From an uncultured Paludibacteraceae bacterium (GTDB lineage Bacteria > Bacteroidota > Bacteroidia > Bacteroidales > Paludibacteraceae): a stretch of 64,000 bases of DNA. Shown in pieces: positions 23,669 through 49,873 of this stretch. The notes under the pieces were generated by a model that was given only the letters and a program-made list of their open reading frames with translations, did not search any database and was not told the DNA's origin. The stretch is taken from contig CAZMYT010000004.1 of assembly GCA_964570565.1 (NCBI GenBank), forward strand, positions 114,256 through 178,255, written 5' to 3'. The stretch's first letter is position 1. Every line of letters starts with the position of its first letter. The translations under genes and the position numbers were made by a program.

Positions 23669-26284
23669 ATGGTTAAATTTTATGTTGTTTGTCAAACGAG
23701 TTTTGGTCAAGATTTATTTCTGTCCGTTGGCGAAACTATTGTGCCGATGCGCTATGTGGTGAATGGCTTATGGCATTGTGAATTGGACCTGACGTCTAAA
23801 TCGCCCACCGTGTATCGTTATTTTGTCCAAAATCCTGATAAATCGGTGACTGAAGAATCGCCTGTAGAGCGTTTATTGCCCGCTTTTGTTGGTAATTTAA
23901 CCGTTCACGATACGTTTCAAGCCAAAAATATTTCCTATGTATTTCGTACAACACCGTTTGTAGAAAGTCTCTGTTTTCACAAGGCTAAAAAACTACCTAA
24001 ATTATCCAAATTAGATTCGTTATTGCTTGTAAATGCACCAGCTGTAGAGTCGCATCAAGGTGTGGCGGTAATTGGTTCTCACCCGTTATTAGGCGAGTGG
24101 AATGCATCGCAATTGGTAGAAATGCAATATACCGACAATGCCAATTGGTTTGTAGTATTGAAATCGGATGAAACACTACAAGGTGCTGAATATAAGTTTG
24201 TTGTTTACGATTTGAATACGCGTGCCATTGTGCGCTGGGAAGAGGGCGAAAATAGCCGATTGCCCGAAATGGCTGTTTCTACCATGTTGACGCAAGTATT
24301 TCGACAAACATTTCAATGGAAAGGTGCTGGCGTAGCTATTCCAGTGTTTTCATTGCGTAGTGAAAACGATTGGGGCGTTGGTGAATTTTACGATTTAAAA
24401 GAGATGGTCGATTGGGCAGAGCAGACTGGACAAAAGTTGATTCAAATTTTGCCAATAAATGATACGACTAACACGAAAACAGATACTGATTCCTATCCTT
24501 ATAGTACCAATTCTGTCTACGCATTACATCCCATGTACCTTAATATGAAAGGGTTGGGCGTGCTTAAAGATAAAAAACAGTTCGCCAAGTTTGAACAAGA
24601 AGGACAACTTTTAAATGACAAGTCGTATGTGGATTACGCTGCTGTCAATCATTTGAAATGGAACTATTTGATGGCTATTTTTGCGCAGGAATCGTCCACA
24701 GTATTTGCCACTCAAGCTTATCAGGATTTCTTTAAAACGAATGAATCGTGGTTGGTTTCTTATGCTGTTTTTAGTGCTTTGCGCGACGAATTTGGAACGT
24801 CCGATTTTCGTCAGTGGCCCCATTTTTCTACCTATGATGAAAAAGCGGTGAAAGCCTTCGCTGATAAGCATTTTGATGCCATTTCCATTTATTATTTTGT
24901 CCAATATCATTTGGCACGACAACTCTCTGAAGTGCGCGATTATGCACATGCTAAAGGCGTTGTGTTTAAAGGCGATTTACCTATTGGCATCAGTCCCAAT
25001 AGTGTGGATGCGTGGATGTATCCACGTTTATTCCATTTGGATAAACAGGCTGGTGCGCCGCCCGATGATTTTTCGGTGACTGGGCAAAATTGGGGTTTCC
25101 CAACTTATAACTGGGAAGAAATGGCCAAAGATGGTTTTAGTTGGTGGAAAAATCGTTTTCAAAATATGGCTCATTATTTTGATGCATACCGTATCGATCA
25201 TATTCTAGGATTCTTCCGTATCTGGGAAATTCCAAAGTCTTCTGTGTGGGGATTGTTAGGTTATTTTAATCCTGCTTTGCCTTTGTCGGTGGCTGAAATA
25301 GAGGCTTATGGTATTCGTTTTGATGCCGATCGATTACTCACACCTTATATCACAGAAGCGTTATTGACCGAACTTTTTGGGGAACAAAAAGAGTCTGTAA
25401 TCTCACACTTTTTGGATATTAAAAGTGCTGGTGTTTATCAATTTAAACCGTTGTTTGATACGCAGCAGAAGGTACAACACTATTTTGATACGCATGATGT
25501 AACTTCAGAAGAAAAGTTGTTGTTGAATGGACTTTTGGAGTTGCATACGGAAGTGCTTTTTGTGGAAGATATCTATCACAAAAATTCCTATCATCCACGT
25601 ATTACCATTCAAAAATCGCATGTCTTTAAATCACTCGATGATGCCTTTAAAAATAAGCTAAATCGTTTGTACGAAGATTATTACTATTACCGTCATACCG
25701 AATTTTGGAAAAGGCAAGCGATGGCAAAACTTCCTGAATTACTACGTACTACGAATATGTTAGTTTGTGGAGAAGATTTGGGTATGGTACCAGCTTGTGT
25801 CCCGGCAGTGATGGAGGCGTTACAAATTTTAAGTTTAGAAATTCAGCGTATGCCTAAAAATCCTGCTACGGAATTTGTATTGCCTTCTGAAACGCCTTAT
25901 TTGTCGGTTTGTAGTACAGGAACGCACGATACGTCGCCTTTGCGAAGTTGGTGGCTCGAAAATCCAGAATCGATACAACGTTACTATACCAGTGTATTGC
26001 GTAATAAAGGCGTAGCTCCAACCGAGTGCACTACTGATTTAGCGGAACAAATTATAAGTCAACAGCTCCAAGCCAATGGCATGTGGGTGATATTACCGTT
26101 GCAAGATTATTTAGCTATGGATGGCACGTTACGTTTGGCAAATCCGTTAGCTGAACGCATCAATGATCCTAGCAATCCGCATCATTTTTGGAGTTACCGT
26201 ATGCATCTCACCCTTAATGAGTTGAATCAAGCGTCCGACTTTAATCATAAATTGTATAAACAGATAATGGCGTATCGCCATTGA
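23669..26284 (+). CDS. malQ: 4-alpha-glucanotransferase (GH77) with N-terminal starch-binding-like domain
   Basis: GH77 blocks (GVAIPVFSLRS, YPYS..S, DLPIG, RIDH..GF, GEDLG, GTHD). The roughly 200-aa N-terminal extension resembles CBM20. Confidence 0.88.
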   Translation: MVKFYVVCQTSFGQDLFLSVGETIVPMRYVVNGLWHCELDLTSKSPTVYRYFVQNPDKSVTEESPVERLLPAFVGNLTVHDTFQAKNISYVFRTTPFVESLCFHKAKKLPKLSKLDSLLLVNAPAVESHQGVAVIGSHPLLGEWNASQLVEMQYTDNANWFVVLKSDETLQGAEYKFVVYDLNTRAIVRWEEGENSRLPEMAVSTMLTQVFRQTFQWKGAGVAIPVFSLRSENDWGVGEFYDLKEMVDWAEQTGQKLIQILPINDTTNTKTDTDSYPYSTNSVYALHPMYLNMKGLGVLKDKKQFAKFEQEGQLLNDKSYVDYAAVNHLKWNYLMAIFAQESSTVFATQAYQDFFKTNESWLVSYAVFSALRDEFGTSDFRQWPHFSTYDEKAVKAFADKHFDAISIYYFVQYHLARQLSEVRDYAHAKGVVFKGDLPIGISPNSVDAWMYPRLFHLDKQAGAPPDDFSVTGQNWGFPTYNWEEMAKDGFSWWKNRFQNMAHYFDAYRIDHILGFFRIWEIPKSSVWGLLGYFNPALPLSVAEIEAYGIRFDADRLLTPYITEALLTELFGEQKESVISHFLDIKSAGVYQFKPLFDTQQKVQHYFDTHDVTSEEKLLLNGLLELHTEVLFVEDIYHKNSYHPRITIQKSHVFKSLDDAFKNKLNRLYEDYYYYRHTEFWKRQAMAKLPELLRTTNMLVCGEDLGMVPACVPAVMEALQILSLEIQRMPKNPATEFVLPSETPYLSVCSTGTHDTSPLRSWWLENPESIQRYYTSVLRNKGVAPTECTTDLAEQIISQQLQANGMWVILPLQDYLAMDGTLRLANPLAERINDPSNPHHFWSYRMHLTLNELNQASDFNHKLYKQIMAYRH

Positions 26285-29537: not shown

Positions 29538-29694
29538 TAATAGAGATTATTTTGTTAGGCGTTGATAATCAGTGCCAAAATGTGTTAACTAGTGGGTTAT
29601 TCGTAGACATTAATGGTCTTTTGGTCGATTATAATCCTAACAAACGGTAAAAAAATAAACATAAATCGAACGATTTGTAACTAATTATGTGTGT

Positions 29695-30540
29695 ATGGAC
29701 GAAAAATACTCCACCCTAATTGAACCCAAAACATCGCTTCTGTCTGTCGATTTTAAAGAAATTTGGCGTTATCGCGATTTGTTTTCGATGTTTGTGAAAC
29801 GTGATATCATCACGCAATACAAACAAACCATATTAGGTCCAGCTTGGTTCTTTATTCAACCATTGCTTACCATGGTGATGTACATGATTGTGTTTGGAGG
29901 TATTGCCGGTATTAGTACCGATGGGCTGCCACAAGCACTTTTTTATTTAGCAGGCATTTTGTGTTGGCAGTATTTTGCCGACTGCTTGAATAAAACGTCT
30001 AGTACATTTACCACGAATCAAAATATTTTTGGTAAAGTTTATTTCCCACGTTTGATCGTGCCTTTAGCTACGGTTTCTTCTAATTTGGTACGTCTCTTTA
30101 TTCAGCTATTCTTGTTTGTGGTAGTTTATGTTTACTATTTGGTAGTTGGCGTTAATGTCGCTCCCAATTGGTATGTGCTGTTATTTCCTGTTTTGGTACT
30201 CATGTTGGCAGGTTTGGCGTTAGGCTTTGGTATTATTATTTCGTCGATGACCACCAAATATCGTGATTTGACTATTCTATTCACCTTTGTGGTGCAATTG
30301 TGGATGTATGCTACGCCTATTATTTATCCATTGAGCACGATTACCAACACAACTGTTCGTACGGTTATGCTTTTAAATCCCATTACTTCCATTGTTGAAA
30401 CGTTCAAATATGGCGCGTTGGGCATTGGCTCATTTAGCTGGGGTGCTTTAGGGTATAGTTTTGGGTTTATGGTAGTATTGTTGGCCGTTGGTATTGTGGT
30501 GTTCAATAAAGTGCAACGTAGTTTCATGGATACGGTGTAA
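29695..30540 (+). CDS. wzm: ABC-2 type polysaccharide export permease
   Basis: FKEIWRYRDLFSMFVKRDIITQYKQTILGPAWFFIQP is the classic Wzm/TagG N-terminus, followed by 6 TM segments. I prefer ATG 29695. Confidence 0.88.
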   Translation: MDEKYSTLIEPKTSLLSVDFKEIWRYRDLFSMFVKRDIITQYKQTILGPAWFFIQPLLTMVMYMIVFGGIAGISTDGLPQALFYLAGILCWQYFADCLNKTSSTFTTNQNIFGKVYFPRLIVPLATVSSNLVRLFIQLFLFVVVYVYYLVVGVNVAPNWYVLLFPVLVLMLAGLALGFGIIISSMTTKYRDLTILFTFVVQLWMYATPIIYPLSTITNTTVRTVMLLNPITSIVETFKYGALGIGSFSWGALGYSFGFMVVLLAVGIVVFNKVQRSFMDTV

Positions 30541-30585: not shown

Positions 30586-31956
30586 ATGGTAGTTAATGCA
30601 CTAGAGTTATTACTTAAACAGAAACGTTTTGATTTAATTTTTAAGTACGTTTTTCTTGCTCAACAAAATGAGTTTGCTCACAATGCGTATCTTGAGAATA
30701 TTAGAGCGTTTAATAATTTTTACGAGCTCAATCCAAGTGATGGTGTTCCTAAAAATTCAGCTGATGATTTTGTGCAAAGTTTTAATAACTTAATTCAAAA
30801 CATAAAAGATAACGGATTTAAAGCGGCTAAAGGATCGATTCCTATCGGTAAAAATGGTGACATAACCGATGGCGCACATCGCTTAGCAGCATCGGCCTAT
30901 CTTGGATTGGATGTTGAAACCGTTGATGATACGGATTATGATGAGTTGTACGATTATCGTTTTTTTCAACAACGTCAGATGAATCCTGATGTGATGGATT
31001 TTGGTGCATTGGAATATGTTAAGTTAAACAAAAACGCTTATATTGTTAATATTCATTCAGTTACAGATGCAACTAAAGATGCTGAAGTAGAGGCTGTTTT
31101 AAATAAGTATGGTTTTATATTTTATAAAAAACAGGTCGATTTAACTCAGAATGGGTATGTAAATATCAAGAAATTGTCATATGGATTTTTTTGGGATCGG
31201 GAGTCGTGGATTGGAAATGTTGATAATAAATTTGCAGGCGCACGAGCTCATGCAAAAGCTTCTATGGGTAAATCGCCTTTGCGTGCTTTTGTTTTTGTAT
31301 GCGATGATTTAGAAAAAGTTTTATTGGCAAAAAGTGAAATTAGAGCTATTTTTGATATTGGGAATTACAGTGTTCATATCAACGATTACCGCGAAGAAGC
31401 TATATGGCTTGCAGAAATTTATTTTAATAAAAACTCTTTATTCATGATCAATAATCGTCCTTTAGCATTTGAGGATGAGGAATTTGATACTTGTATAGAG
31501 TCTTTGAAACAATTGGCTAAAGAGCACAATATACCGTTAGATAACATTTGCGCATCAGGCAGTAGCCCTTTAAATGTCTTTGGAGTTAGAAAAAGCGCAG
31601 ATTTGGATTTCTTGTGTCTTAGCGACAATTTCGATATTCAAACAGAAGAATTATCAAACCATGAAGACCAACTGAAGTATTATCCATACCCGAAAGCGGA
31701 GATTATCACTAATCCTAACTACCATTTTTACTATCATGGTTTGAAGTTTATTAGTTTGGATGTGTTATATCAAATGAAGAAAAATAGAGCAGAAAAACCT
31801 AAAGATATCAATGACTGTAAGCGGATACGAAAGATATTTACTCAAAGCAAGCGTGATAAAATGCTTTCACGATTAAAGAAATACAAAAATACATACAAGA
31901 TGGTTCGATCAATAATTAAGCCCATCTATAAAACAATAAAAAAATTAATCAACTAG
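30586..31956 (+). CDS. two-domain protein: N-terminal ParB/sulfiredoxin-like domain plus C-terminal Pol-beta-type nucleotidyltransferase-like domain
   Basis: ITDGAHRLAAS (DGxHR, aa 95-99) and ASGSSPLNVFGVRKSADLDFL (G[GS]-x12-DxD, aa 324-341). It is encoded between wzm and wzt. Confidence 0.5.
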   Translation: MVVNALELLLKQKRFDLIFKYVFLAQQNEFAHNAYLENIRAFNNFYELNPSDGVPKNSADDFVQSFNNLIQNIKDNGFKAAKGSIPIGKNGDITDGAHRLAASAYLGLDVETVDDTDYDELYDYRFFQQRQMNPDVMDFGALEYVKLNKNAYIVNIHSVTDATKDAEVEAVLNKYGFIFYKKQVDLTQNGYVNIKKLSYGFFWDRESWIGNVDNKFAGARAHAKASMGKSPLRAFVFVCDDLEKVLLAKSEIRAIFDIGNYSVHINDYREEAIWLAEIYFNKNSLFMINNRPLAFEDEEFDTCIESLKQLAKEHNIPLDNICASGSSPLNVFGVRKSADLDFLCLSDNFDIQTEELSNHEDQLKYYPYPKAEIITNPNYHFYYHGLKFISLDVLYQMKKNRAEKPKDINDCKRIRKIFTQSKRDKMLSRLKKYKNTYKMVRSIIKPIYKTIKKLIN

Positions 31957-32053: not shown

Positions 32054-33298
32054 ATGAGTGATGCAATAAAATTTGAAAATATCAGTAAACAATACCGCCT
32101 TGGTTTGGTAAGTACACAAACGTTGAGTCACGATATTAATCGATGGTGGAAGGTAAATGTCTTACGCCAGGAAGATCCTTATCTCAAAATAGGTTCCGTG
32201 AACGATCGTTCTAAAGCGGCTGATGGTGATTATGTGTGGGCTTTAAAAGATATTTCTTTTAGTGTAGCACAAGGCGATGTTATTGGCATTATTGGTAAAA
32301 ATGGTGCAGGAAAGTCGACTTTGCTTAAAATCCTATCTAAAGTGACTACGCCTACCACAGGTACTATTAAGGCCCGTGGTCGTATTGCGTCATTGCTTGA
32401 AGTGGGCACAGGCTTTCACCAAGAAATGACTGGACGTGAGAACATTTACATGAATGGTGCCATAATGGGCATGTCCAAGAATGAAATAACGCGTAAATTA
32501 GACCAAATTATTGATTTTTCGGGTTGCGAGCGTTATGTTGATACGCCAGTAAAACGTTATTCAAGTGGTATGACTGTACGTCTTGGATTTGCTATTGCAG
32601 CGCATTTGGATCCCGAAATTTTGGTAGTGGATGAAGTGTTGGCTGTTGGCGATGCTGAGTTTCAAAAGAAAGCTATTGGCAAAATGCAGGATGTGAGCCG
32701 TGGTCAAGGACGAACTGTGTTATTTGTAAGTCATCATATGCCTTCTATTCAGCAATTGTGTTCTTCTTGTGTATTGCTTGAAAACGGTATGATTTCTACT
32801 ATTGATAAGACCAATGTGGTGATTGATAAATATATAAGAGAACAGAGCATCAAAGGTAATTATGAACGTCAAGGTTCAGGCTTTGTCCGTTTTCAGTCTT
32901 TTAGTTTGACTAAAGATAGTATTGCGATAGGTGAGGATCTAGAGCTGAATCTAACCCTGAAAACCTCGGAATATATTGCAAAAGCCATTATTCATATCAA
33001 TATTTATAATGACAATGAACAATATGTCTTACAGGCGTCGAGTGAGGACAGTGAATTTATTCTAACCAACTTGGCACCTAAAGCGACCTATCATGTTAAA
33101 TGTGTATTACCACATTTGAATGCTATTCCTGGAAACTATTCTATTAATTTGTGGGTAGGTACTCCTTATGAATGGTTTGATTGGCTTAAAGGATGTCTTC
33201 AATTTTCGATTTATCAGGATCAATCGTATATTAAACGGGTTTCTCCATACCCATCTGATGCTAAATTAGTGCTTCAGTCGGAATGGAAAAATTTGTAA
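32054..33298 (+). CDS. wzt: polysaccharide ABC exporter ATP-binding protein with ~165-aa C-terminal extension (Wzt_C-like glycan-binding domain)
   Basis: Walker A GKNGAGKST, signature YSSGM and Walker B ILVVDE. The extra C-terminal beta-rich region is as in Wzt proteins that recognise capped O-chains. Confidence 0.85.
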   Translation: MSDAIKFENISKQYRLGLVSTQTLSHDINRWWKVNVLRQEDPYLKIGSVNDRSKAADGDYVWALKDISFSVAQGDVIGIIGKNGAGKSTLLKILSKVTTPTTGTIKARGRIASLLEVGTGFHQEMTGRENIYMNGAIMGMSKNEITRKLDQIIDFSGCERYVDTPVKRYSSGMTVRLGFAIAAHLDPEILVVDEVLAVGDAEFQKKAIGKMQDVSRGQGRTVLFVSHHMPSIQQLCSSCVLLENGMISTIDKTNVVIDKYIREQSIKGNYERQGSGFVRFQSFSLTKDSIAIGEDLELNLTLKTSEYIAKAIIHINIYNDNEQYVLQASSEDSEFILTNLAPKATYHVKCVLPHLNAIPGNYSINLWVGTPYEWFDWLKGCLQFSIYQDQSYIKRVSPYPSDAKLVLQSEWKNL

Positions 33299-33336: not shown

Positions 33337-34410
33337 ATGGAGTTAACACTAAGTATATTAGTTATTTCTCATAATCAAAAAGAGCTTTTGCGAAGATGTA
33401 TTACATCTTTGTTGCAGCAACAACTGTCGTGTTCCTATGAGATTATAATTAGTGATGATCGCTCTAGTGATGGTACTTGGGAATTAATAGAAGCCTATCA
33501 ACAAAAATATCCAAACTTAATTTTTGGGTATCATTGTAATTCTGATGAATGTAATCCAGCTAATCGTTCGGAACGTTGTGGATGGAATAAAGCCAATGCT
33601 TATAGACACGCCAAAGGGAAATATTTTGTTAATATTGATGCCGATGATTATTTGAAAAGTGATGACATTTATCAATTACAAGTGGATGCTCTAGAAGCTC
33701 GCCCTCAATGTAGTATGTGTCAACAACAGATATTGACTGTTAATGATGGAGAAGATTTGTCAAAAGGGAGAGTTTGGCCGATTAGCCCATTGATAACATC
33801 AGGGAATATCTTGACTCCAACCGATATTATTTTGAAAGGATTGCGTGCTTTGAATCAGGGATATATGATGCGTAGAAATCCCACTGTTGATCCTATTGAA
33901 TTGTATGGAAAACATTTTGATGATACGGTGATTACATTACATCATTTGCAATATGGTAATGTGGTGGTAGTGGAACGAGCTGACTATGTATGGGTTCAAT
34001 ATGCATCCAGTATCAATTCATCACTTAAAAATATGGATCGAGATGTTGTTATAGGTTTGTTACCGATACATCATATCCTTTTTATACCAACGTTTGCAGG
34101 GTTGTTTATGAAAGATGGTCTCCGTGATTTGGTTCATTTATTTAAGCAATCTTCTTATCATACAATGATATTAACATCTGATACAACCAATTTTCTGAAC
34201 GAATTTAAAGGATTTTTGTTTCGCTATTATACTTCATCAAGTCCTTCTTTTGGGTATAAATTGCGTATGTTAATGGTTCGCTATCTGGCGTTACTAATCA
34301 AAAAATATAAAATGGATTATGCTTGGGCATATCAGCTACTATTTGCTATGATGGTTGACGTTAAAAGTGCTCATAAAATAACAAAAGAACAATGGAAAAT
34401 AAACCCATAA
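33337..34410 (+). CDS. glycosyltransferase family 2
   Basis: LSILVISHNQ...ISDDRSSDGT...DADDY GT-A motifs. Confidence 0.8.
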   Translation: MELTLSILVISHNQKELLRRCITSLLQQQLSCSYEIIISDDRSSDGTWELIEAYQQKYPNLIFGYHCNSDECNPANRSERCGWNKANAYRHAKGKYFVNIDADDYLKSDDIYQLQVDALEARPQCSMCQQQILTVNDGEDLSKGRVWPISPLITSGNILTPTDIILKGLRALNQGYMMRRNPTVDPIELYGKHFDDTVITLHHLQYGNVVVVERADYVWVQYASSINSSLKNMDRDVVIGLLPIHHILFIPTFAGLFMKDGLRDLVHLFKQSSYHTMILTSDTTNFLNEFKGFLFRYYTSSSPSFGYKLRMLMVRYLALLIKKYKMDYAWAYQLLFAMMVDVKSAHKITKEQWKINP

Positions 34411-35504
34411 CCGTTACATCGCCTTTATTACCTGATTTAGACGAATTTATTCCTTATTTAAAACAAATTTGGGATAGTAAATGGATTACCAATAATGGCG
34501 ACTTTCATCAACAGTTGGAACAGGCTTTATGTGAGTACTTGGGCGTAGACTATATCAGTGTATTTACCAATGGTACATTGCCTCTGATTACTGCTTTTCA
34601 AGCGCTTAATATGCGTAAAGGCGAGGTAATTACCACGCCTTATAGCTTTGTGGCAACCACGCATGCTATTTGGTGGAATGGTTTAACACCCGTTTTTGTG
34701 GATGTAGATCCTATTACAGGCAACATTGATCCTGACAAAATAGAAGCCGCCATTACCGAAAATACAGTAGCCATTATGCCAGTGCACGTCTATGGAAATC
34801 CATGTGATACCGAGAAAATTGAAGCCCTAGCAAAGCGCTATAATTTGAAGGTTATTTATGATGCAGCCCATGCATTTGGGGTGAAGGTAGATGGAAAAAG
34901 TATTTTACAACATGGTGATATGAGCACGTTGAGTTTTCATGCTACAAAAGTGTTTAACACCATTGAAGGAGGAGCGTTGATTTGTCACAGTGCCGAAATG
35001 AAACAACAAATTGATTACCTCAAGAATTTCGGTTTTGAAGATGAGGTTACCGTAATGGCACCTGGCATTAACTCCAAGATGGATGAAATTAGAGCGGCTT
35101 ATGGTTTTTTAAATTTACGACAAGTAGATAGAGCTATCGCTCATCGTAAACAGGTCGCCCAAGACTATCGAGAAGGTCTGAAAAATATCAAAGGAATTAC
35201 CTGCATGCACGAAATAGAGGGTGTTTCGCATAATTATAGTTATTTTCCTATATTTGTAAATGAACGTGAATACGGTATGAGTCGCGATGCGCTTTACGAA
35301 AAAATGAAAGCTGCTAATGTATTAGGGCGGAGGTATTTTTACCCACTCATTAGTACATTTTCGCCTTATTCGTCTTTGCCATCGTCTAATAGTGATAATT
35401 TGCCTATCGCCAATAATCTGGCAAATGCTGTTATTTGCTTACCAATGCATGCCGAACTAACCGATGAAGATGTTGATAGAGTCTTATCGTCGATTGTTAG
35501 GTGA
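34392..35504 (+). CDS. DegT/DnrJ/EryC1/StrS family sugar aminotransferase
   Basis: PLLPDLDEF start, DAAHAFG and SFHATKVFNTIEGG (PLP lysine present). Confidence 0.85.
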   Translation: MENKPITVTSPLLPDLDEFIPYLKQIWDSKWITNNGDFHQQLEQALCEYLGVDYISVFTNGTLPLITAFQALNMRKGEVITTPYSFVATTHAIWWNGLTPVFVDVDPITGNIDPDKIEAAITENTVAIMPVHVYGNPCDTEKIEALAKRYNLKVIYDAAHAFGVKVDGKSILQHGDMSTLSFHATKVFNTIEGGALICHSAEMKQQIDYLKNFGFEDEVTVMAPGINSKMDEIRAAYGFLNLRQVDRAIAHRKQVAQDYREGLKNIKGITCMHEIEGVSHNYSYFPIFVNEREYGMSRDALYEKMKAANVLGRRYFYPLISTFSPYSSLPSSNSDNLPIANNLANAVICLPMHAELTDEDVDRVLSSIVR

Positions 35505-35600
35505 AAGGTGAAAAGGTTAGTGGTTAATGGGGAACAAGTGAATGTTAAGAAGAGGTTAAAGGTGAAGAGTTAATGGTTAATGGGGAACAGGTTAAGAGGA
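35497..35600 (+). repeat. word-repeat array L1 (GGTGAA/GGTTAA/GGTTAATGGGGAAC words, two ~47-nt degenerate tandem units)
   Basis: Read directly. It has 12 stop triplets and closes all three frames. The DegT stop codon lies in the first word. Confidence 0.85.
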
Positions 35601-35606
35601 AATTAT

Positions 35607-35981
35607 ATGGCAGAAGCATATTCCTATAGAAAGTTGGATGTTTATATCAATGCTAAAGTGTTGGTAAAAACGGTCTATAACCATTTAAGAAAGTTTCCGA
35701 AAGAGGAAAATTATGCCTTATGCGACCAGTTACGTCGTTCTGTTATTTCAGTACCGTCTAACATTGCAGAAGGAATGGGACGTTTTTCATCCAAGGAACA
35801 AATTCATTTTTTAGAAATAGCTTTTGGTTCATTGATGGAAGTACAATGTCAACTTGACATTTCGTGTGATTTGGGATATATTACAATAGAAGAATTTGAA
35901 GTCATTAATAACGATATAAATAATATAGCAAAACAATTATCAGGGTTACGTTCGTTAAGAATACGCGCCCTTAACCTTTAA
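35607..35981 (+). CDS. four-helix-bundle protein (23S rRNA intervening-sequence protein / Avd-like family)
   Basis: YRKLDVY...QLRRSVISVPSNIAEG...EV..QL family pattern. Start at ATG 35607. The stop codon lies inside repeat R1. Confidence 0.8.
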   Translation: MAEAYSYRKLDVYINAKVLVKTVYNHLRKFPKEENYALCDQLRRSVISVPSNIAEGMGRFSSKEQIHFLEIAFGSLMEVQCQLDISCDLGYITIEEFEVINNDINNIAKQLSGLRSLRIRALNL

Positions 35982-36009: not shown

Positions 36010-36699
36010 ATGAAACTTGCCATCATGCAGCCCTATTTTATGCCATATATTGGTTATTTCCAGACAATGGCAGCGGTTGATACGTATGTTGTGTATGATG
36101 ATGTGCAGTATATTAAGGGCGGTTGGGTGAGCCATAATAATATCATTATTGGTGGTGAGAAAAAGATGTTTACTATTATACTTAAAGGAGCAAGTCCTAA
36201 TAAGTTGTTCAACGAGGTAGAGATTGGCGATGATTTTAAGAAATTTGAACGTATGTTGCAAAGTGCGTATGCTAAAGCGCCTTATTTTAGTGAAGTGATG
36301 CCATTATTGCATGCCATTTTTACTTATGATGAAAAATCGTTGGGGAAATTTTTGCTTCACAGTTATCAAGTTTTGTTGGATTATTGGGAAATTGGAACAC
36401 AATTGGTACTATCGTCAGAGTTAGAAAAAGATGGTACCCTGCGCGGTCAAGATAAAGTATTGAATATTTGTAAAAATCTCCAAGCCACAGAGTATTATAA
36501 TGCCATTGGTGGACAAGACTTGTATGATAAACAGACATTTGCACAACATGGGATTGAGCTTAGTTTTGTACAGACACTGGTGGTTTCCTATTCACAGTTT
36601 GCGCCTGAATTTATACCTAATTTGTCTATTATCGATGTGTTAATGCATAATGGCAAAGCCGGAACAAAGCAGTTGTTAAATGCCTATAAGTTGATATGA
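36010..36699 (+). CDS. WbqC family protein
   Basis: MKLAIMQPYFMPYIGYFQ... is the characteristic WbqC N-terminus; 229 aa. Confidence 0.8.
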   Translation: MKLAIMQPYFMPYIGYFQTMAAVDTYVVYDDVQYIKGGWVSHNNIIIGGEKKMFTIILKGASPNKLFNEVEIGDDFKKFERMLQSAYAKAPYFSEVMPLLHAIFTYDEKSLGKFLLHSYQVLLDYWEIGTQLVLSSELEKDGTLRGQDKVLNICKNLQATEYYNAIGGQDLYDKQTFAQHGIELSFVQTLVVSYSQFAPEFIPNLSIIDVLMHNGKAGTKQLLNAYKLI

Positions 36700-37812: not shown

Positions 37813-38874
37813 ATGAAAAAAGCTTTAATTACTGGTATTACGGGTCAAGATGGATCCTATCTAGCTGAGTTTTTACTTGGTAAAGGTTATGAAGTACATG
37901 GTATCATTCGACGTTCATCTACGTTTAATACAGGACGTATTGAACATCTCTATTTGCACGAATGGGTACGCGATATGAAACGGGAACGTGCCATTAATTT
38001 GCACTATGGTGATATGACCGATTCCAGTTCGTTGATTCGTATTATTCAGGAAGTTCAGCCAGACGAGATTTATAATCTGGCGGCACAAAGTCATGTAAAA
38101 GTAAGTTTTGATGTTCCTGAGTATACCGCTGAAACTGATGCTGTTGGAACATTGCGTTTATTGGAAGCCATTAGAATTTTGGGCATGGAAAAACGCATTA
38201 GAGTGTATCAAGCCTCAACTTCAGAACTTTTTGGTAAAGTACAGGAAGTTCCTCAAAAAGAGACAACTCCTTTTTATCCACGTTCTCCTTATGGGGTGGC
38301 AAAACTGTATAGTTATTGGATTATTAAAAACTATCGTGAATCGTATGATATGTTTGCGGTTAATGGAATCTTATTTAATCATGAGAGTGAACGTCGTGGT
38401 GAGACTTTTGTAACACGTAAAATCACTTTAGCTGTTGCACGTATAGCTAAAGGACTTCAGGATAAATTATATATGGGAAACCTCAATGCCTTACGTGATT
38501 GGGGCTACGCCAAAGACTATGTAGAATGTATGTGGTTGATGTTGCAACATTCGACACCCGAAGATTTTGTAATTGCCACTGGTGAATACCATACTGTACG
38601 CGAATTTTGCTTATTGGCTTTTGCTGAAGCAGGCATTGATTTGGTATTTGAAGGTGAAGGTGTTGAAGAAAAAGGTATTGATAAAAAATCTGGCAAGGTG
38701 TTACTTGAAATTGACCCTAAATATTTTAGACCATCCGAAGTAGAACAATTACTAGGTGATCCAACTAAAGCAAGAACATTATTAGGATGGAATCCACGCA
38801 AAACATCTTTTCAACAATTGGTTAAATTGATGGTTAAATCTGATATGGCACTGGTGGAAAAGGAAAATAGCTAA
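37813..38874 (+). CDS. gmd: GDP-mannose 4,6-dehydratase
   Basis: [19 protein letters not shown]...SSTFNT.RI.HLY...YGVAKLY pattern. Confidence 0.92.
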
Positions 38875-38886
38875 TTTAATTTATGT

Positions 38887-39816
38887 ATGGATAAAAATGC
38901 CAAAATATACATAGCAGGACATACAGGATTGGTAGGGTCTGCTATTTGGCGCTATTTAGAGCGTGCTGGATTTCATAATCTAGTAGGTAAAACACATGGT
39001 GAAGTTGATCTAAGAGATGCTCAAGCCGTTAAGCACTTTTTTGATTCAGAAAAACCAGTTTACGTATTTTTAGCTGCAGGAAGAGTTGGCGGCATACAAG
39101 CAAATATAGCGCAGCCAGCCTCTTTTTTATATGATAACGTTATGATGCAAGTGAATGTTATTCATCAAGCATATCTATCGAACGTAAAAAAAATAGTTGT
39201 TTTAGGTTCTTCTTGTATTTATCCTAAAGCATCTCCACAACCCATGAAAGAAGACTATTTACTCGATGGTAAATTGGAACCAACGAATGAAGGTTATGCA
39301 CTTTCTAAGATTGTAGCCTTAAAAATGGCAGAAGTCTATAAACAGCAATATAAATTTGATGCTATTGCTATTATGCCTCCCAATTTGTATGGTTTTAATG
39401 ACAGTTTTGATCCTATACATTCGCATGTATTATCTGCAACAGTTAAAAAGTTTGTTGATGCTGTAGATCAGGGGCTATCACAGGTAACCATGTGGGGAAC
39501 AGGAAATGCGCGGCGTGAATTTATGCATGTTGATGATATGGCTGCTGCAGCTTTTTACATGATGGAGCAATATAATGGCGATACCTTTATAAATGTGGGT
39601 TGGGGCGAAGATATTTCAATCAAATCGTTAGCCGAATTAGTAGCCGATATGGTTGGTTATAATGGATCTATCGTTTGGGATACTTCTAAACCAGATGGTA
39701 TGATGCGTAAATGTATGGATGTAACTCGCATGAAAGAAATAGGATTTTATCCTAAAATAGAGATAAAAGAAGGGATTAGAGAAATGATTAATTATTATAA
39801 CACAATCAAACAATGA
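38887..39816 (+). CDS. GDP-L-fucose synthase family epimerase/reductase (Fcl/WcaG); in this context possibly GDP-L-colitose synthase (ColC-like)
   Basis: IYIAGHTGLVGSA, SSCIYP, Y..SK. It is flanked by gmd and a ColD-type dehydratase. Confidence 0.8.
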   Translation: MDKNAKIYIAGHTGLVGSAIWRYLERAGFHNLVGKTHGEVDLRDAQAVKHFFDSEKPVYVFLAAGRVGGIQANIAQPASFLYDNVMMQVNVIHQAYLSNVKKIVVLGSSCIYPKASPQPMKEDYLLDGKLEPTNEGYALSKIVALKMAEVYKQQYKFDAIAIMPPNLYGFNDSFDPIHSHVLSATVKKFVDAVDQGLSQVTMWGTGNARREFMHVDDMAAAAFYMMEQYNGDTFINVGWGEDISIKSLAELVADMVGYNGSIVWDTSKPDGMMRKCMDVTRMKEIGFYPKIEIKEGIREMINYYNTIKQ

Positions 39817-40985
39817 GAATTCCATTAATGAAAAATGCGTTTCTAAGAGAAAAAGAAACGAAGCAAGCATTGTCAGAATTTATATTAAATACGAATCAAT
39901 TTTCCATGGGACAGGAGTGTGAAAAGTTTGAACATAAATTTTCACGCTATCAACGTCGAACCTATTCTTTGTTATTCAATAGTGGTGGTAGTGCAAATTT
40001 AGCTTTACTGCAAGCACTTAAAAGTTTAGGACGTTTAAAAGATGGAGATAAAATAGGCTTTTCCTCACTTACGTGGTCAACCAACGTGATGCCTATTATT
40101 CAAATGGGTTTTATTCCGGTGCCTATTGATTGTGAGATTAACACCATTAACGTGATGTCTAAAAATCTCATTCAACGTATAAAAGAGGTGAAATTATCGG
40201 CTTTTTTTGCTACAAATGTATTAGGTTATTCTGGTGATTTAGATATCATTAAAACCTTATGTGCTGATAACGACATCCTATTTTTGGAAGATAATTGTGA
40301 ATCATTAGGTGCTGAAATGCCAACGGATAAGGTTGGTAATTTTAGTTTAGCTTCAACCTTTTCTTTTTATGTAGCTCACCACATGTCTACTATCGAAGGT
40401 GGTATGCTATGTACAGATGATGACGAGTTATATCAGGTTTTGAAAATGACACGTGCTAATGGTTGGGATCGTAATTTGACCGAAACTCAACAAACCAAAT
40501 TACGTGAGCCCTACAATATTTCACCATTCAATTCTAAATACAGTTTTTTTGAATTGGGTTTTAATTTAAGACCAACTGAAATTACAGGTTTTTTAGGACA
40601 ACATCAAATGCAGTATTTGGAAGAAAATATAGCTATTCGCAATAATAATCATCGAAGATTTGAAACCGTCATTTCACAAAATGATGATTTGTTGTTAGTA
40701 AAACATGATCACATGCATCAAATATCTCCGTTTGGTTTGGTGGTGCTTTGCAAAACGCCCGAATTACGTGAGAAATACTTAACAAGGTTCATTGCTGCAG
40801 AGATTGAAGTTCGTCCTGTGATCGCAGGAAATATGCAAAATCAACCTTTTTATAGTAAGTATGTAGAAGTTATGTATGACTTACCTAATACTGATTTTAT
40901 TCATAATAATGGATTTTATTGTGGTAATTATCCAGAGTTAAGCGATGCTGATATTGACGTGATTTGTAACTGTTTGAAAAAATAA
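39813..40985 (+). CDS. colD: PLP/PMP-dependent 3-dehydratase of the DegT superfamily (ColD/E1 type, His replaces the Schiff-base Lys)
   Basis: SFYVAHHMSTIEGG aligns with SFHATKVFNTIEGG of the neighbouring DegT, so His189 occupies the Lys position. gmd is adjacent, which points to a GDP-linked substrate. Confidence 0.65.
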   Translation: MRIPLMKNAFLREKETKQALSEFILNTNQFSMGQECEKFEHKFSRYQRRTYSLLFNSGGSANLALLQALKSLGRLKDGDKIGFSSLTWSTNVMPIIQMGFIPVPIDCEINTINVMSKNLIQRIKEVKLSAFFATNVLGYSGDLDIIKTLCADNDILFLEDNCESLGAEMPTDKVGNFSLASTFSFYVAHHMSTIEGGMLCTDDDELYQVLKMTRANGWDRNLTETQQTKLREPYNISPFNSKYSFFELGFNLRPTEITGFLGQHQMQYLEENIAIRNNNHRRFETVISQNDDLLLVKHDHMHQISPFGLVVLCKTPELREKYLTRFIAAEIEVRPVIAGNMQNQPFYSKYVEVMYDLPNTDFIHNNGFYCGNYPELSDADIDVICNCLKK

Positions 40986-40990: not shown

Positions 40991-41812
40991 ATGTACATTT
41001 TTTATCCATTGTATGGTTTGGCCAATCGTATGCGAGTAATTGATTCAGCCTATCGCTTTTGTAAAACCTACAATAAAAAGTTTGTAATATGTTGGGAACG
41101 TGACCAGGTAGTTAATTGTCCATTCAATAAATTATTCAATCCGTTAGCGTATCTTAAAGAGTCGCACTCTTATCGCTATGTTCGCTTGTTGCATAAATTA
41201 GAACGCCATTTTGGATTGGTTCGTTGGTTTGTGCAAGTGCTTGAAAGATGTCATATATTAAAAATATTTAAAGAAGAACAATACGAAGAGTTACGGGCGT
41301 TTACTAAAAAGGGAGGCAATAAATTTCTTTGGGTAATTGTCGAAAGTTATTCGGTTTTTTATAGAACAGATGAAGATGATTTTTTTCGCGATTTATTTCA
41401 ATTAAATGATTTGATGTCACAACGGTTAAAAAATGAAACCAAAGCATTTAAAACTAACGTTATTGGTGTTCATGTCCGTAGAACTGATAATAAGGATTCT
41501 ATTGAGCGAAGCCCTTTGGAATTATTTATTGCGCGAATGCAAGAGGAAATAGTCAAAGACCCTGAAGTTCAGTTTTATGTAGCCTCCGATGATCCGTTAG
41601 TTAAAGAACAATTGTTACACATGTTTGGTGCTCAACGTATAATTATTCCAACTGGTGTTATAGGGCGCGATTCAGAAGAGGGTATACGTCAAGCGTTGAT
41701 TGAAATGTATGCACTTTCTAAAACAAAACGTATTTTGGGTTCTTATTATAGTTCATTTTCAGAAATTGCATCATCCTTAGCTAGTGTTGAACTTCAAATA
41801 ATAATGAAATAA
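40991..41812 (+). CDS. putative GDP-sugar (fucosyl/colitosyl-type) transferase, GT11/GT23/POFUT-like fold (tentative)
   Basis: N-terminal YGLANRM (compare GGLGNQM) and GVHVRRTDN (compare HxRRGD of alpha-1,2-fucosyltransferases). It sits right after the GDP-deoxyhexose genes. Confidence 0.4.
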   Translation: MYIFYPLYGLANRMRVIDSAYRFCKTYNKKFVICWERDQVVNCPFNKLFNPLAYLKESHSYRYVRLLHKLERHFGLVRWFVQVLERCHILKIFKEEQYEELRAFTKKGGNKFLWVIVESYSVFYRTDEDDFFRDLFQLNDLMSQRLKNETKAFKTNVIGVHVRRTDNKDSIERSPLELFIARMQEEIVKDPEVQFYVASDDPLVKEQLLHMFGAQRIIIPTGVIGRDSEEGIRQALIEMYALSKTKRILGSYYSSFSEIASSLASVELQIIMK

Positions 41813-47300: not shown

Positions 47301-47927
47301 ATGAATACACTCTCAGAAATAGGAGCGGTTCCAGTTGATTTTTCGCTACTGAAGGCGATGTATCCTAATCACAAATCGATACATAATAAAATCAGTGAGT
47401 TAGAAAATGCAGGAAAACTTATTCGCTTGAAAAAAGGTTTGTATGTGGTTGCTCCCCAAGAGAGTGGCATGCTGTTATCGTCAGAGTTGATAGCCAATCA
47501 TTTATATGGTCCATCTTATGTTTCCAAAGAGTCTGCTTTACGTTATTATGGCTTAATTCCTGAACAGGTTTATACGCTGTATTCAATGACCACAAAACAT
47601 GCTAGAAGTTTTACAAATGCATTAGGCACATTTGATTATACACACTGTTCGAACGATTATTTTACCATAGGTATTAGGCAAGAATCGAAAGAAGGTTTGT
47701 TTTTTTTAATGGCAACTCCAGAGAAAGCTTTGTGCGACTTAATTATAAACACACCCAACCTAAATCTCCGTTATCAAAAGGAAATCAGAACCTATTTAGA
47801 AGAGGATATACGGTTTGACATGCAGGCATTTTTTAAGATGGATGTGGAAATTCTAAAACAATGTCTGTTGTATGGTAAAAAAAAGCCTATCATTACCAAT
47901 TTAATTCACCTCATCAGAAAATCATGA
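47301..47927 (+). CDS. abiEi: type IV toxin-antitoxin system AbiEi family antitoxin
   Basis: N-terminal wHTH-like ...ISELENAGKLIRLKKGLYV... and ...YVSKESALRYYGLIPE... patterns typical of AbiEi. ATGA overlap with the next gene. Confidence 0.75.
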   Translation: MNTLSEIGAVPVDFSLLKAMYPNHKSIHNKISELENAGKLIRLKKGLYVVAPQESGMLLSSELIANHLYGPSYVSKESALRYYGLIPEQVYTLYSMTTKHARSFTNALGTFDYTHCSNDYFTIGIRQESKEGLFFLMATPEKALCDLIINTPNLNLRYQKEIRTYLEEDIRFDMQAFFKMDVEILKQCLLYGKKKPIITNLIHLIRKS

Positions 47928-48748
47928 ATCCAATGTTTGAACAAATGGTTTCGTCCTATCAAATGGTGACCGATAAGGATAGACGAAATGCCATGTATGA
48001 AGTTATGCAAAAAATAACGTTAGCTGGACTTTATCGAGGAGGTTTTTTCGATAAAGCTGCGTTTTATGGCGGAACTTGCTTACGGATTTTTCATAACATG
48101 GAGCGATTTTCAGAAGATATGGATTTTTCTCTTTTGGTGGCCGATGAGTCGTTTAAAATTGAACACTATTTTCCCGCTATTATCGAAGAGTTTCATTTGG
48201 TAGGCCGAGAGGTGGAGATTACTAAAAAAGATAAAACGCAGTTCAGTAAAGTTGATTCAGCCTTCTTAAAGGACGATACAGATGTGTATGATGTGGTATT
48301 TAAGACTGAGAAAAGTTTGAAAATAAAAATAGAGGTGGATACCCAACCTCCGTTGCAATTTCAAACTGAACATAAATTGTTATTGCGTCCCTATTCGTTT
48401 ATGACACGCTGTTTTACACTACCTAATTTATATGCGGGGAAAATGCACGCATTAGTTTTTAGAACCTGGAAAAATCGTGTAAAAGGCCGTGATTGGTATG
48501 ACTTTGAATGGTACGTTCGCCATGAAGTTCCCTTAAATTTTACTCATCTACAAGAACGTATTAGGGTTTTAAATGGCTTGGAGATGGATGAAAACCAATT
48601 CTTACAACTCCTTAAGGAGCGGTTAGCTTCCACTGATATCAAACAGGTGAAACAGGATGTGGCACCTTTTATAAAAAAACCTAAAGCATTGGAAATTTGG
48701 ACTAATAACTATTTTTTGCAGTTGGCTGACCTGATTAAATTTGAATAA
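47924..48748 (+). CDS. abiEii: AbiEii/AbiGii family nucleotidyltransferase toxin
   Basis: FYGGTCLRIFHNMERFSEDMDFSL (GGT.L...R.SEDxDF) motif and KIEVDT block; 274 aa. Confidence 0.8.
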   Translation: MNPMFEQMVSSYQMVTDKDRRNAMYEVMQKITLAGLYRGGFFDKAAFYGGTCLRIFHNMERFSEDMDFSLLVADESFKIEHYFPAIIEEFHLVGREVEITKKDKTQFSKVDSAFLKDDTDVYDVVFKTEKSLKIKIEVDTQPPLQFQTEHKLLLRPYSFMTRCFTLPNLYAGKMHALVFRTWKNRVKGRDWYDFEWYVRHEVPLNFTHLQERIRVLNGLEMDENQFLQLLKERLASTDIKQVKQDVAPFIKKPKALEIWTNNYFLQLADLIKFE

Positions 48749-49871: not shown

Positions 49872-49873
49872 AG

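Follow-up and report, generated by a model that had tools for sequence, protein, structure and literature searches.

Within the window, by which we mean the whole 64,000-nucleotide stretch of DNA analyzed here, a gene encoding a 456-amino-acid protein (30586..31956; an open reading frame with an ATG start) lies between the two genes of an ABC-type glycan exporter. Upstream is wzm (29689..30540), an ABC-2 type permease gene recognized by the ABC2_membrane model (PF01061, 2.9e-19) and by a weak match to the NCBIfam Wzm/RfbD model. Downstream is wzt (32054..33298), which encodes an ABC ATPase (PF00005, 1.6e-21) with a C-terminal carbohydrate-binding module (CBM). These three genes share one strand and are separated by intergenic gaps of 45 and 97 bp. 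The placement of the gene between wzm and wzt in the preliminary description is thus borne out by these domain matches, and the C-terminal extension it noted on Wzt is indeed a Wzt_C carbohydrate-binding module (PF14524, 6.4e-12; aa 270-389, nt 32861-33220). Next come genes for a GT2 glycosyltransferase (33337..34410; PF00535, 4.3e-20) and a DegT-type sugar aminotransferase (34392..35504; PF01041, 1e-102). All of these features, and the protein domains described below, are encoded on the plus strand.

We use “Fam” as a working name for the unnamed three-domain family that contains the 456-residue protein. Neither Pfam nor NCBIfam models match this protein, and Pfam searches with all 34 aligned members (E <= 10) and with distant members likewise returned nothing for Fam. 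Searches of PDB sequences with full-length Fam, using both phmmer and profiles, also gave no match. Cluster look-ups yielded just the names “hypothetical protein” and “FkbM family methyltransferase,” and our literature search found no paper on the family. Searches for homologues recovered 230 sequences, and 2,967 representative clusters were counted at 50% identity. Fam members come from many phyla and from giant viruses; they are frequent among Bacteroidales of the gut and rumen and also occur in Campylobacter, Helicobacter, Treponema, and marine bacteria. The metagenome scan was seeded with alignment A1, the divergent alignment A5 being too variable.

The AF2 model of Fam (pLDDT 93.8, pTM 0.90) is confident, and from it we assign a ParB/Srx-like domain, a nucleoside diphosphate kinase (NDK)-like domain, a minimal Pol-beta nucleotidyltransferase (NTase) domain, and a cationic amphipathic C-terminal helix. 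The protein had earlier been read as a fusion of two domains, based on GDITDGAHRLAAS at aa 91-103 and ASGSSPLNVFGVRKSADLDFL at aa 323-343. Both segments are located exactly there, but a third conserved domain (NDK-like, aa ~149-293) lies between the two motifs, and the two-domain description had to be abandoned. When the protein was shuffled 20,000 times, DG.HR appeared in 0.1% of the resulting sequences, G[GS]-x(9-13)-DxD in 4.1%, and both in 0.005%. Because of the 4.1% figure, the NTase pattern by itself is weak evidence. Nevertheless, both motifs are conserved among 34 homologues, and 43 divergent multi-domain members conserve the same positions. More generally, across the 34 close and 43 divergent members, little or no variation is seen at the putative catalytic residues of each of the three domains. 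Neither a solved structure in the PDB nor a Pfam model assigns a particular reaction to any of these domains.

The ParB/Srx-like domain (aa 1-148, nt 30586..31029) was assigned from Foldseek searches of BFVD and the PDB, from the hhalign register, and from conservation. Many ParB-like nuclease and ParB/Sulfiredoxin proteins were matched in BFVD with probabilities of 0.94-1.0 and identities of 21-31% over 52-77 columns (one example covers 52 columns at an rmsd of 1.2 Å and 31% identity). In the PDB, KorB matched the Fam model at rank 36 with a probability of 0.66. With these phage ParB-like proteins and KorB as matches, the original ParB/Srx fold call holds structurally. Common to this superfamily, which includes the ParB CTPase domain, sulfiredoxin, and the archaeal serine kinase SerK, and Fam are the fold and a strand-D-G-x-H-R-helix signature at the phosphate-binding position. 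In the window protein this signature is DGAHR (D95-G-A-H98-R99; aa 95-99, nt 30868-30882), of which H98 and R99 are invariant and D95, G96, and A97 near-invariant among 34 homologues. The hhalign comparison places DGAHR on GGCHR of Srx and GERRFR of Spo0J, although this alignment is not significant (probability of at most 1%) and served only to establish the motif register. Fam departs from ParB in that no curated ParB-family model (Pfam ParBc or related) matches any of the 34 members, even at E <= 10, and in that the model contains no helix-turn-helix (HTH) or other DNA-binding domain. It departs from sulfiredoxin in having no catalytic Cys in this domain.

The middle domain (aa 149-293, nt 31030..31464) has an NDK-like ferredoxin fold, as judged by Foldseek searches of the PDB and BFVD, hhalign, and conservation. 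RP2 is the top PDB match of the Fam model, and together with NDKs of several species it was recovered at probabilities of 0.96-1.0 and TM scores (target) of 0.51-0.55. NDK-like phage proteins in BFVD reach TM scores (target) of 0.58-0.66. The beta-alpha-beta-beta-alpha-beta arrangement of NDK and of NDK-like domains, such as those of RP2 and the NME paralogues, is found here too, and the H-x-[S/N]-D-x-x-E-x-A…[W/Y]-F segment, whose His falls on the predicted fourth strand, is in register with the phospho-histidine motif of NDK. This segment includes the invariant H264 within H-I-N-D (nt 31375-31386); across divergent members K249 and R253 are also invariant, and D267 is near-invariant. H264 is placed on the catalytic His of NDK by hhalign, at a probability below 1%, a result used for motif register only. 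The spacing between N and H in N260-x-x-x-H264-I-N-D267 is off by one residue relative to N-x-x-H-G-S-D of NDK. Among the nucleotide-binding residues of NDK (K12, Y52, R88, T94, and R105), K12, R88, and R105, for example, lack an evident equivalent in Fam, and the secondary-structure string, judged by eye, appears to leave no room for a Kpn loop insertion. A profile of this domain matched no PDB sequence, and the Pfam NDK model does not match it. Unlike NDK, it is one of three domains in a larger protein.

The third domain (aa 294-405, nt 31465..31800) was assigned as a minimal Pol-beta-type NTase from a domain model, Foldseek, profile searches, and conservation. Since the middle domain dominates the matches when the full-length model is compared with the PDB, this domain was modeled alone (pLDDT 95). 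Foldseek then gave ANT(4'), TM1012, JHP933, MNT, the CCA-adding enzyme, poly(A) polymerases, and TUT7 as top PDB matches. Nearly all of the top 30 are NTases, but with E values of at least 0.3, probabilities of at most 0.47, and TM scores of at most 0.49. The sole natural-protein match of a profile search against PDB sequences was the CD-NTase 6e0m (E 0.09), aligned on GS…DxD. In structural terms, the NTase fold call seems to hold. The individual scores behind the NTase and ParB assignments are weak (E >= 0.3 for the former, a nonsignificant hhalign result for the latter).

This domain resembles the minimal Pol-beta NTases (MNT, the kanamycin nucleotidyltransferase ANT(4'), and CD-NTases) in its alpha-beta-alpha-beta core, where G-S precedes helix 2 and D-x-D lies on strand 2; a conserved S-x-H-[D/E] occupies the strand that follows and is a candidate site for the third acidic residue of the superfamily. 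The corresponding residues are G325-S326 and D339-L-D341 (nt 31558-31608), followed by S357-x-H359-E360. In the model, G325-S326 falls between strand 321-324 and helix 327-331, and D339-L-D341 on strand 340-344. S326 is invariant and G325, D339, and D341 are near-invariant among the 34 homologues; S357-x-H359-[D/E]360, on strand 356-358, is conserved as well. Compared with the minimal NTases, the likeness is at the level of fold and motif only (E >= 0.09), and Fam has no HEPN partner. ANT enzymes modify hydroxyls of amino sugars, and LicD and FKRP are functionally comparable.

The C-terminal tail (aa 406-456, nt 31801..31953) was characterized from the model, the charge count, and the hydrophobic moment. 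It is predicted to form one long helix (aa 406-455) and contains 18 K/R versus 3 D/E residues. The hydrophobic moment reaches its maximum for the whole protein, 0.78, in the last 18 residues (aa 438-455). The tail is probably an in-plane membrane anchor, and it resembles the anchor described for WbdD (PMC11231755).

The surroundings of Fam genes are consistent across the family in one respect: every locus that was inspected or scanned for markers has the appearance of a glycan locus. Within three genes on either side of Fam (22 loci, 127 proteins), we counted 30 GT2, 11 DegT, 7 FemAB-like, and 5 FdtA proteins. A GT2 gene is adjacent or fused to Fam in 20 of the 28 close relatives with at least 3 kb of flanking sequence, and DegT is found within 3 kb in 14 of 28. 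The most constant partner of Fam is GT2 and not the transporter. The GT2 protein encoded in the window is 45% identical to the one that follows a Fam homologue in a Bacteroidaceae MAG. We rejected the idea that the downstream GT2 is one orthologous partner throughout, as identity to the Campylobacter, Treponema, and Helicobacter proteins is only 21%.

This uniform setting bears on the notion that Fam is a DNA-directed ParB-like nuclease or partition protein, or else an NTase of a toxin-antitoxin or defense system, that resides in the locus by chance. One homologue (P0034) carries the database name “ParB-like nuclease domain-containing protein,” MNT/AbiEii-type NTases are among the fold matches, and an AbiEi/AbiEii pair is encoded elsewhere in the window. 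However, glycan loci across many phyla, fusions to glycosyltransferases and methyltransferases, a model devoid of HTH or other DNA-binding domains, and the lack of a partner toxin or antitoxin and of any PADLOC-type context make this explanation almost certainly wrong.

The constant pairing with GT2 could also be taken to mean that Fam is a noncatalytic organizer or NTP-gated switch: its ParB-like domain would bind CTP or another NTP, as in ParB clamps, and the protein would scaffold or regulate the GT2/polymerase complex at the membrane. The N-terminal domains of ParB proteins are NTP-dependent switches, and NDK-like folds need not be kinases, as the RP2-type domain illustrates. We nonetheless regard a noncatalytic role as very unlikely, given that residues of catalytic type (H264, DxD, GS, and HR) are strictly conserved over wide divergence and that Fam has repeatedly been fused to tailoring enzymes.

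These fusions are diverse. Of the 43 two-module members, 21 include an FkbM methyltransferase, and a further 9 include GT2. In 3 of the 21 there is also a match to RfbT of V. cholerae, a methyltransferase known to modify the terminal O1-antigen sugar. Larger proteins are arranged as MT-Fam-GT2-MT or GT-sulfotransferase-Fam-MT, and the homologues from giant viruses are glycosyltransferase fusions.

Synteny with wzm and wzt, a point raised in the preliminary description, extends to part of the family. After dereplication, wzt lies within 6 kb of Fam in 14 of 42 close loci and in 2 of 47 distant ones. Where wzt is this near, Fam directly adjoins it in 11 of the 14 loci, and most of the Wzt proteins concerned possess a Wzt_C module. 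Locus L031 has the order wzm-wzt(Wzt_C)-[Fam+FkbM]-GT2, in which the position of Fam after wzm-wzt matches that of wbdD. Beyond Wzm/Wzt systems, Fam occurs in the C. jejuni lipooligosaccharide (LOS) locus, in Helicobacter, in a flagellin glycosylation island, and in exopolysaccharide (EPS) loci.

Taking the domain folds, conserved residues, genomic associations, and fusions together, we tentatively favor a reading that we consider quite possible but short of probable: Fam is a membrane-associated, nucleotide-dependent enzyme that adds a phosphate-linked group to a glycan, and in Wzm/Wzt loci this group serves as an end cap. The cationic amphipathic helix would hold Fam against the cytoplasmic side of the membrane, the site at which undecaprenyl-linked glycans are assembled. 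There, the ParB/Srx-type domain may bind an NTP or take part in phosphotransfer, the conserved histidine of the NDK-like domain would probably carry a phosphoryl group, and the NTase domain, with its intact GS…DxD site, would work jointly with the other two. What they would attach, we infer, is a phosphate, nucleotidyl, or phospho-X group linked to a sugar through phosphate, and the acceptor would most likely be the residue that the neighboring GT2 contributes. In relatives with a fused or nearby FkbM/RfbT-type methyltransferase, the product might then be methylated. In ABC-transporter-dependent loci, including that of the window, the modified nonreducing end would be the cap bound by the carbohydrate-binding module of Wzt, and the role of Fam would equal that of WbdD in E. 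coli O9a.

Export in ABC-transporter-dependent pathways for O antigens and wall polysaccharides needs a chemical cap, and the caps known together with their enzymes are methyl, methyl-phosphate, and Kdo only (PMC11231755, PMC9445017). A Pfam survey of the window's cluster detected no methyltransferase, kinase, or Kdo-transferase candidate, nor any other terminator candidate, and neither an FkbM-like gene nor a second Fam copy was found in the window. Loci in which a CBM-bearing Wzt is not accompanied by any recognizable terminator are numerous. On two occasions already, unrelated folds have given rise to terminator kinases, namely WbdD and ORF6 of K. pneumoniae O7 (PMC3482155, PMC11231755).

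WbdD, the chain terminator of E. coli O9a and K. pneumoniae O3, combines a kinase with a methyltransferase, and Fam resembles it in several ways. The Fam gene lies beside a CBM-bearing wzt, its relatives are fused or adjacent to SAM methyltransferases, and the protein has a C-terminal amphipathic anchor and a predicted phosphotransfer activity on a lipid-linked glycan in the cytoplasm. However, the kinase of WbdD is like eukaryotic protein kinases, whereas the Fam folds (ParB/Srx, NDK-like, and Pol-beta NTase) are entirely different. The window's cluster also lacks a methyltransferase, therefore a methyl-phosphate cap is not expected there, and Fam, unlike WbdD, is found outside Wzm/Wzt pathways as well. 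Moreover, known terminators typically have a long coiled-coil “ruler” (PMC11231755), and no such ruler is apparent in the Fam model, which shows only one terminal helix of about 50 residues. The N-terminal methyltransferase-kinase of O7 ORF6 (PMC11231755) is embedded among several modules, as is Fam in MT-Fam-GT2-MT, but its kinase is AmiN/APH-type-like with a catalytic Asp and has no similarity to Fam. We rejected this kinase as a Fam relative because of its APH-like fold, and likewise GT137 (K. pneumoniae O4 ORF7), which has a methyltransferase-like beta/alpha/beta fold.

The genes beside Fam also admit a role in precursor activation, in which Fam would act on a small molecule and not on the polymer. 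One domain would phosphorylate a sugar or alcohol and the NTase would couple it to a nucleotide, yielding an activated donor for the adjacent GT2. Bifunctional kinase/pyrophosphorylases such as Bacteroides FKP, or the LicA/LicC pair, are analogues. Such a scheme would account for the presence, in one chain, of an NTase and of folds that resemble kinases (NDK-like, and ParB/Srx, the fold of SerK and sulfiredoxin), and for tight linkage to GT2 and to the nucleotide-sugar genes DegT and FdtA. Against it, Pol-beta NTases usually move NMP onto hydroxyls and do not form sugar-nucleotide pyrophosphates. In addition, the membrane-anchor tail, the frequent fusions to polymer-level FkbM/RfbT and glycosyltransferase modules, and the position beside wzt better fit an enzyme whose acceptor is a lipid-linked glycan. 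We view this role as unlikely.

Alternatively, the NTase might build the chain itself by transferring sugar-1-phosphate or alditol-phosphate from an NDP- or CDP-activated donor into the glycan. The product, as with LicD/fukutin- or Stealth-like enzymes, would be a phosphodiester within the repeat and not a cap. The Fam gene is usually located between, or overlaps, glycosyltransferase genes, and the fusions in giant viruses are compatible with this proposal, as are the CMP-phosphonate-type donor genes found directly upstream of wzm-wzt-Fam in T. denticola. LicD and FKRP structures, however, are absent from the top fold matches, the window's cluster showed no sign of a CDP-alcohol pathway, and the conserved NDK-like histidine and the ParB/Srx domain would be left unexplained. 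We therefore judge chain building to be decidedly unlikely.

Returning to capping, the proposal that Fam makes a cap read by Wzt is plausible for the window locus, where it agrees with the adjacency to wzt in 11 of 14 relatives, with the gene order at L031, with the FkbM/RfbT-type methyltransferases in about half of the two-module members, and with the failure to detect another terminator candidate in the window's cluster. It fails as a general function of the family, because wzm/wzt is missing from the vicinity of Fam in two thirds of the close relatives and in almost all distant ones. The occurrence of Fam in loci for LOS, flagellin glycans, and EPS, none of which involves an export checkpoint, counts against a capping role as well. 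A more specific version seems doubtful to us: Fam would be a new enzyme class in which a phospho-histidine relay on the NDK-like domain, the NTase, and the ParB/Srx domain install a cap so far undescribed on bacterial glycans (such as nucleotidyl, pyrophosphoryl, or phospho-X) that the CBM of Wzt reads as an export signal, and the same module would be reused on lipooligosaccharide, flagellin, and giant-virus glycans.

Fam makes a good candidate for a new type of enzyme, one that marks the ends of surface polysaccharides for export. If so, it could fill the missing-terminator gap and reveal new cap chemistry, would give both a ParB/Srx domain and an NDK-like domain a glycan-related function for the first time, and would supply a marker gene by which capped glycans can be predicted from sequence. 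Should Fam be no terminator, it would still be a widespread, unannotated tailoring enzyme for the surface glycans of host-associated microbes. A distant blastn search of 5,426 E. coli genomes returned no Fam homologue. On plasmids, only three distant Fam matches were found, and each of these lies within a glycan locus.

The open reading frame at 30586-31956 on the forward strand is genuine and encodes a product of 456 amino acids. Neighbor annotation confirmed that this gene sits between the two genes of an ABC exporter, as a preliminary description had claimed: the gene for an ABC-2 permease (wzm, 29689-30540) lies directly upstream, the gene for an ABC ATPase (wzt, 32054-33298) lies directly downstream, and all three share one strand with gaps of 45 and 97 bp. 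The C-terminal extension previously ascribed to Wzt corresponds to a Wzt_C carbohydrate-binding module (CBM, aa 270-389), and the two peptides highlighted in the 456-aa protein are positioned exactly (aa 91-103 and 323-343). Because DG.HR occurs in 0.1% of protein shuffles and the loose nucleotidyltransferase (NTase) pattern in 4%, both patterns by themselves are weak evidence. Both are invariant or nearly so in homologues.

No match to the 456-aa protein was found in Pfam, NCBIfam, or PDB sequences, and sequence models likewise gave no match for distant members or, at E ≤ 10, for the 34 homologues that were aligned. An AlphaFold2 model built on the 34 homologues is confident over its whole length (pLDDT 93.8, pTM 0.90) and resolves into a terminal helix preceded by three globular domains. 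Domain 1 (aa 1-148) has a ParB/Srx fold, with many matches to phage ParB-like nuclease and ParB/Sulfiredoxin proteins in a viral structure library (probability 0.94-1.0) and a match to KorB in the PDB. Its D95-G-A-H98-R99 segment aligns with GGCHR of sulfiredoxin and GERRFR of Spo0J, an alignment that is not statistically significant.

Domain 2 (aa 149-293) resembles nucleoside diphosphate kinase (NDK). In the PDB, the whole model is closest to NDKs from various species and to RP2, through the NDK-like domain of the latter (probability 0.96-1.0), and phage “NDK-like domain” proteins match Domain 2 with TM scores up to 0.66. The invariant H264 is located on the fourth strand of this domain, and by alignment and direct reading H264-I-N-D-x-x-E-E-A-x-x-L-A-x-x-Y-F corresponds without gaps to the NDK active site H-G-S-D-S-x-E-S-A-x-x-E-I-x-x-W-F. 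The sequence of Domain 2 has no Pfam or PDB match, and no Kpn-loop insertion was seen when its secondary-structure string was read by eye. Domain 2 is not a canonical NDK.

Domain 3 (aa 294-405), which reaches a pLDDT of 95 when modeled alone, is like Pol-beta-type NTases. Almost all of its PDB fold matches belong to this class, each with a weak score (E ≥ 0.3), and they include ANT(4'), TM1012, JHP933, the MNT antitoxin, CCA-adding enzymes, poly(A) polymerases, and TUT7. A profile of the domain searched against PDB sequences matched only one natural protein, a CD-NTase, on G-S…D-x-D (E 0.09), and G325-S326 and D339-x-D341 fall on the expected strand-helix-strand elements. Thus, both folds of the two-domain fusion proposed earlier are supported by structure searches, but the NDK-like domain between them had been missed. 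The tail (aa 406-456) is a single long helix with 18 K/R and 3 D/E residues, and amphipathicity within the protein is highest in its last 18 residues. We read this predicted helix as an in-plane membrane anchor.

Among 43 divergent multi-domain members, the invariant set includes R-x-D…K in helix 1, G-x-H-R, K249, R253, H264, and the NTase glycine, whereas D267 and D-x-D are near-invariant (≥90%). On the basis of this conservation, all three domains therefore look functional. We consider it quite unlikely that the protein is a non-catalytic NTP switch or scaffold.

A word-indexed search returned 230 homologues, and an exhaustive profile search returned 2,967 representative clusters (50% identity); of these, 1,150 scored below 1e-30. 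No paper on this family was found in the literature. The family could be traced to, among others, Bacteroidaceae and Bacteroidales MAGs, Campylobacter jejuni, Helicobacter sp., Treponema denticola, Gastranaerophilales, Alphaproteobacteria, Elusimicrobia, Kiritimatiellae, Puniceicoccales, Desulfovibrionaceae, Negativicutes, Lachnospiraceae, Ilyobacter, Jannaschia, and many marine metagenome contigs. Full-length structural homologues are also present in giant viruses (BFVD), namely Mimivirus LCMiAC01 (E 1e-15), Catovirus, Yasminevirus, Satyrvirus, and Hokovirus; glycosyltransferase fusions occur in several of them, and some carry the label “mRNA capping enzyme.” The GC content of the gene (32.9%) is below that of the window (37.9%) and of the first 24 kb (39.1%), and identity is ~50-60% across unrelated phyla, both of which are consistent with horizontal spread of a cassette.

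We collected 112 loci, leaving 96 after dereplication. Every annotated locus and every locus scanned with marker-gene profiles resembles glycan biosynthesis, and a DNA- or defense-related ParB/NTase protein is accordingly a very improbable reading. Among close relatives (≥40% identity, at least 3 kb of flank on each side, n = 28), a GT2 gene is adjacent or fused in 20, a DegT sugar aminotransferase lies within 3 kb in 14, and Wzt is directly adjacent in 6 and within 6 kb in 8. A Pfam census of ±3 genes (22 loci, 127 genes) counted 30 GT2, 11 DegT, 7 FemAB-like acyltransferase, 5 FdtA, 4 ABC_tran, and 3 Wzt_C. Therefore, GT2 is the most constant partner, often within a 3-amino-3,6-dideoxyhexose-type operon. 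It is not one orthologous protein, because partners share 45% or only 21% identity with the window GT2 (33337-34410). That the family is a small-molecule kinase and nucleotidyltransferase producing the donor for GT2 seems unlikely to us.

Among the best 150 of the 2,967 clusters, nearly half exceed 650 aa. In a census of 43 members of 650-930 aa, 21 are fused to an FkbM-type methyltransferase (3 of which also match the Vibrio cholerae RfbT model), 9 to GT2, 2 to GT10, and 2 to a GT-D-like domain. Larger architectures include FkbM-Fam-GT2-methyltransferase and GT2-sulfotransferase-Fam-FkbM, where Fam denotes the three-domain family. The domain also occurs inside giant multi-module proteins (P0205, 4,050 aa; P0172, P0183, and P0188, 2,570-2,726 aa), and in shorter examples its partners are FkbM and class I methyltransferases, GT2, and a sulfotransferase. 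One environmental locus has the order wzm-wzt(Wzt_C)-[Fam+FkbM]-GT2, matching wzm-wzt-wbdD of Escherichia coli O9a. In another locus (L032, 635-12424), a flagellin glycosylation island, a Fam+FkbM gene directly follows the genes for flagellin, FliD/FliS, and a Maf-type flagellin glycosyltransferase, and therefore the family also appears to serve protein O-glycan tailoring.

Co-occurrence with wzm/wzt is partial. Wzt is within 6 kb in only 14 of 42 close relatives with any flank length (adjacent in 11) and in 2 of 47 relatives below 40% identity (adjacent in 1), many of the latter being N-terminal GT2 fusions from marine samples. However, the gene directly adjoins wzt in 11 of the 14 loci that have one within 6 kb, which by our own estimate is far above random position in a locus of 10-20 genes, and the majority of these Wzt proteins carry the Wzt_C module.

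From the three nucleotide-handling folds, the conserved active-site-type residues, the anchor-like tail, the exclusive glycan context of the examined loci, the coupling to GT2, the polymer-level methyltransferase fusions, and the positional coupling to CBM-bearing wzt, we infer a glycan modification at the membrane face. The protein would act at the cytoplasmic face on a lipid-linked glycan and install a phosphate-linked group: the ParB/Srx domain probably binds or hydrolyzes NTP, H264 probably bears a phosphoryl group as in NDK, and the NTase domain probably either uses an NDP-X donor or transfers a nucleotidyl group. At Wzm/Wzt loci, this would yield a non-reducing-end cap read by the Wzt module; at loci lacking this exporter checkpoint, the same modification would just decorate the glycan. 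We hold this whole reading tentatively, at somewhat below even chances. The capping role proposed earlier is thus plausible at this locus but not universal for the family, given that the C. jejuni gene lies in the LOS locus between waaC/htrB and waaF, without Wzm/Wzt. The cluster in the window needs a terminator, and Pfam revealed no methyltransferase, kinase, or Kdo-transferase candidate in it.

Known terminators (WbdD, WbbB, Klebsiella pneumoniae O4 ORF7 [GT137], and O7 ORF6) add methyl, methyl-phosphate, or Kdo (PMC3482155, PMC11231755), and since the cap is what the Wzt CBM binds, export is limited to capped chains (PMC9445017, PMC11231755). The protein is like WbdD in where its gene sits, in its pairing with methyltransferases, and in a membrane anchor (predicted here), but it has no fold in common with WbdD or any other known terminator and no coiled-coil ruler like theirs. 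By sequence it falls outside the Pfam families NDK, ParBc, and NTP_transf, and the likeness to them is one of fold and motif. The domain combination is unprecedented, whereas the kind of system proposed for it, glycan end-modification or termination, is known.

On a T. denticola contig (L004, 3593-11383), three genes are directly upstream of wzm-wzt-Fam-GT2: they encode a PEP mutase-cytidylyltransferase fusion, a TPP enzyme like phosphonopyruvate decarboxylase, and a fusion of NTP-transferase and aminotransferase. This set resembles a donor pathway for a phosphonate of the aminoethylphosphonate type. A LicD-type transferase was not detected nearby, and the family member there could be the phosphonate or phospho-X transferase. 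A LicD/Stealth-like transferase inserting a phosphodiester-linked unit is, for the family, a rather unlikely alternative.

Several other genes of the window deserve mention. Just upstream of the glycan locus is a GH77 4-alpha-glucanotransferase gene with an N-terminal CBM20 starch-binding module (23669-26284, +), which appears unrelated to that locus. Within the polysaccharide operon, a “23S rRNA-intervening sequence protein” of a four-helix-bundle family (35580-35981, +; PF05635, 9.8e-36) is flanked by DegT aminotransferase and WbqC-like genes. The WbqC-like protein (36010-36699, +; PF08889, 3e-66) could be a second uncharacterized contributor to a cap or N-acyl group; in a related Bacteroidaceae locus (L001), such a gene (7966-8730) lies between DegT and wzt. 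Grouped genes for GDP-mannose 4,6-dehydratase, an epimerase/reductase, and a second DegT aminotransferase (37813-40985, +) suggest that the glycan contains a perosamine-type, GDP-linked 6-deoxy-amino sugar, and the adjacent 273-aa ORF (40991-41812) has only weak FUT8/NodZ fucosyltransferase-like matches. An AbiEi-like antitoxin (weak match) and an AbiEii nucleotidyltransferase toxin (PF08843, 3.9e-30) at 47301-48748 (+), annotated as a type IV toxin-antitoxin pair, are inserted between two glycosyltransferase gene blocks. A second glycan cluster (48765-62119, +) encodes GT4s, a PMT_2-like membrane protein, a FemAB-like acyltransferase, a hexapeptide transferase, an NTP-transferase/HAD fusion, a GHMP kinase, and a SIS isomerase (nucleotide-heptose-type pathway), together with a Bac_transf initiating transferase.
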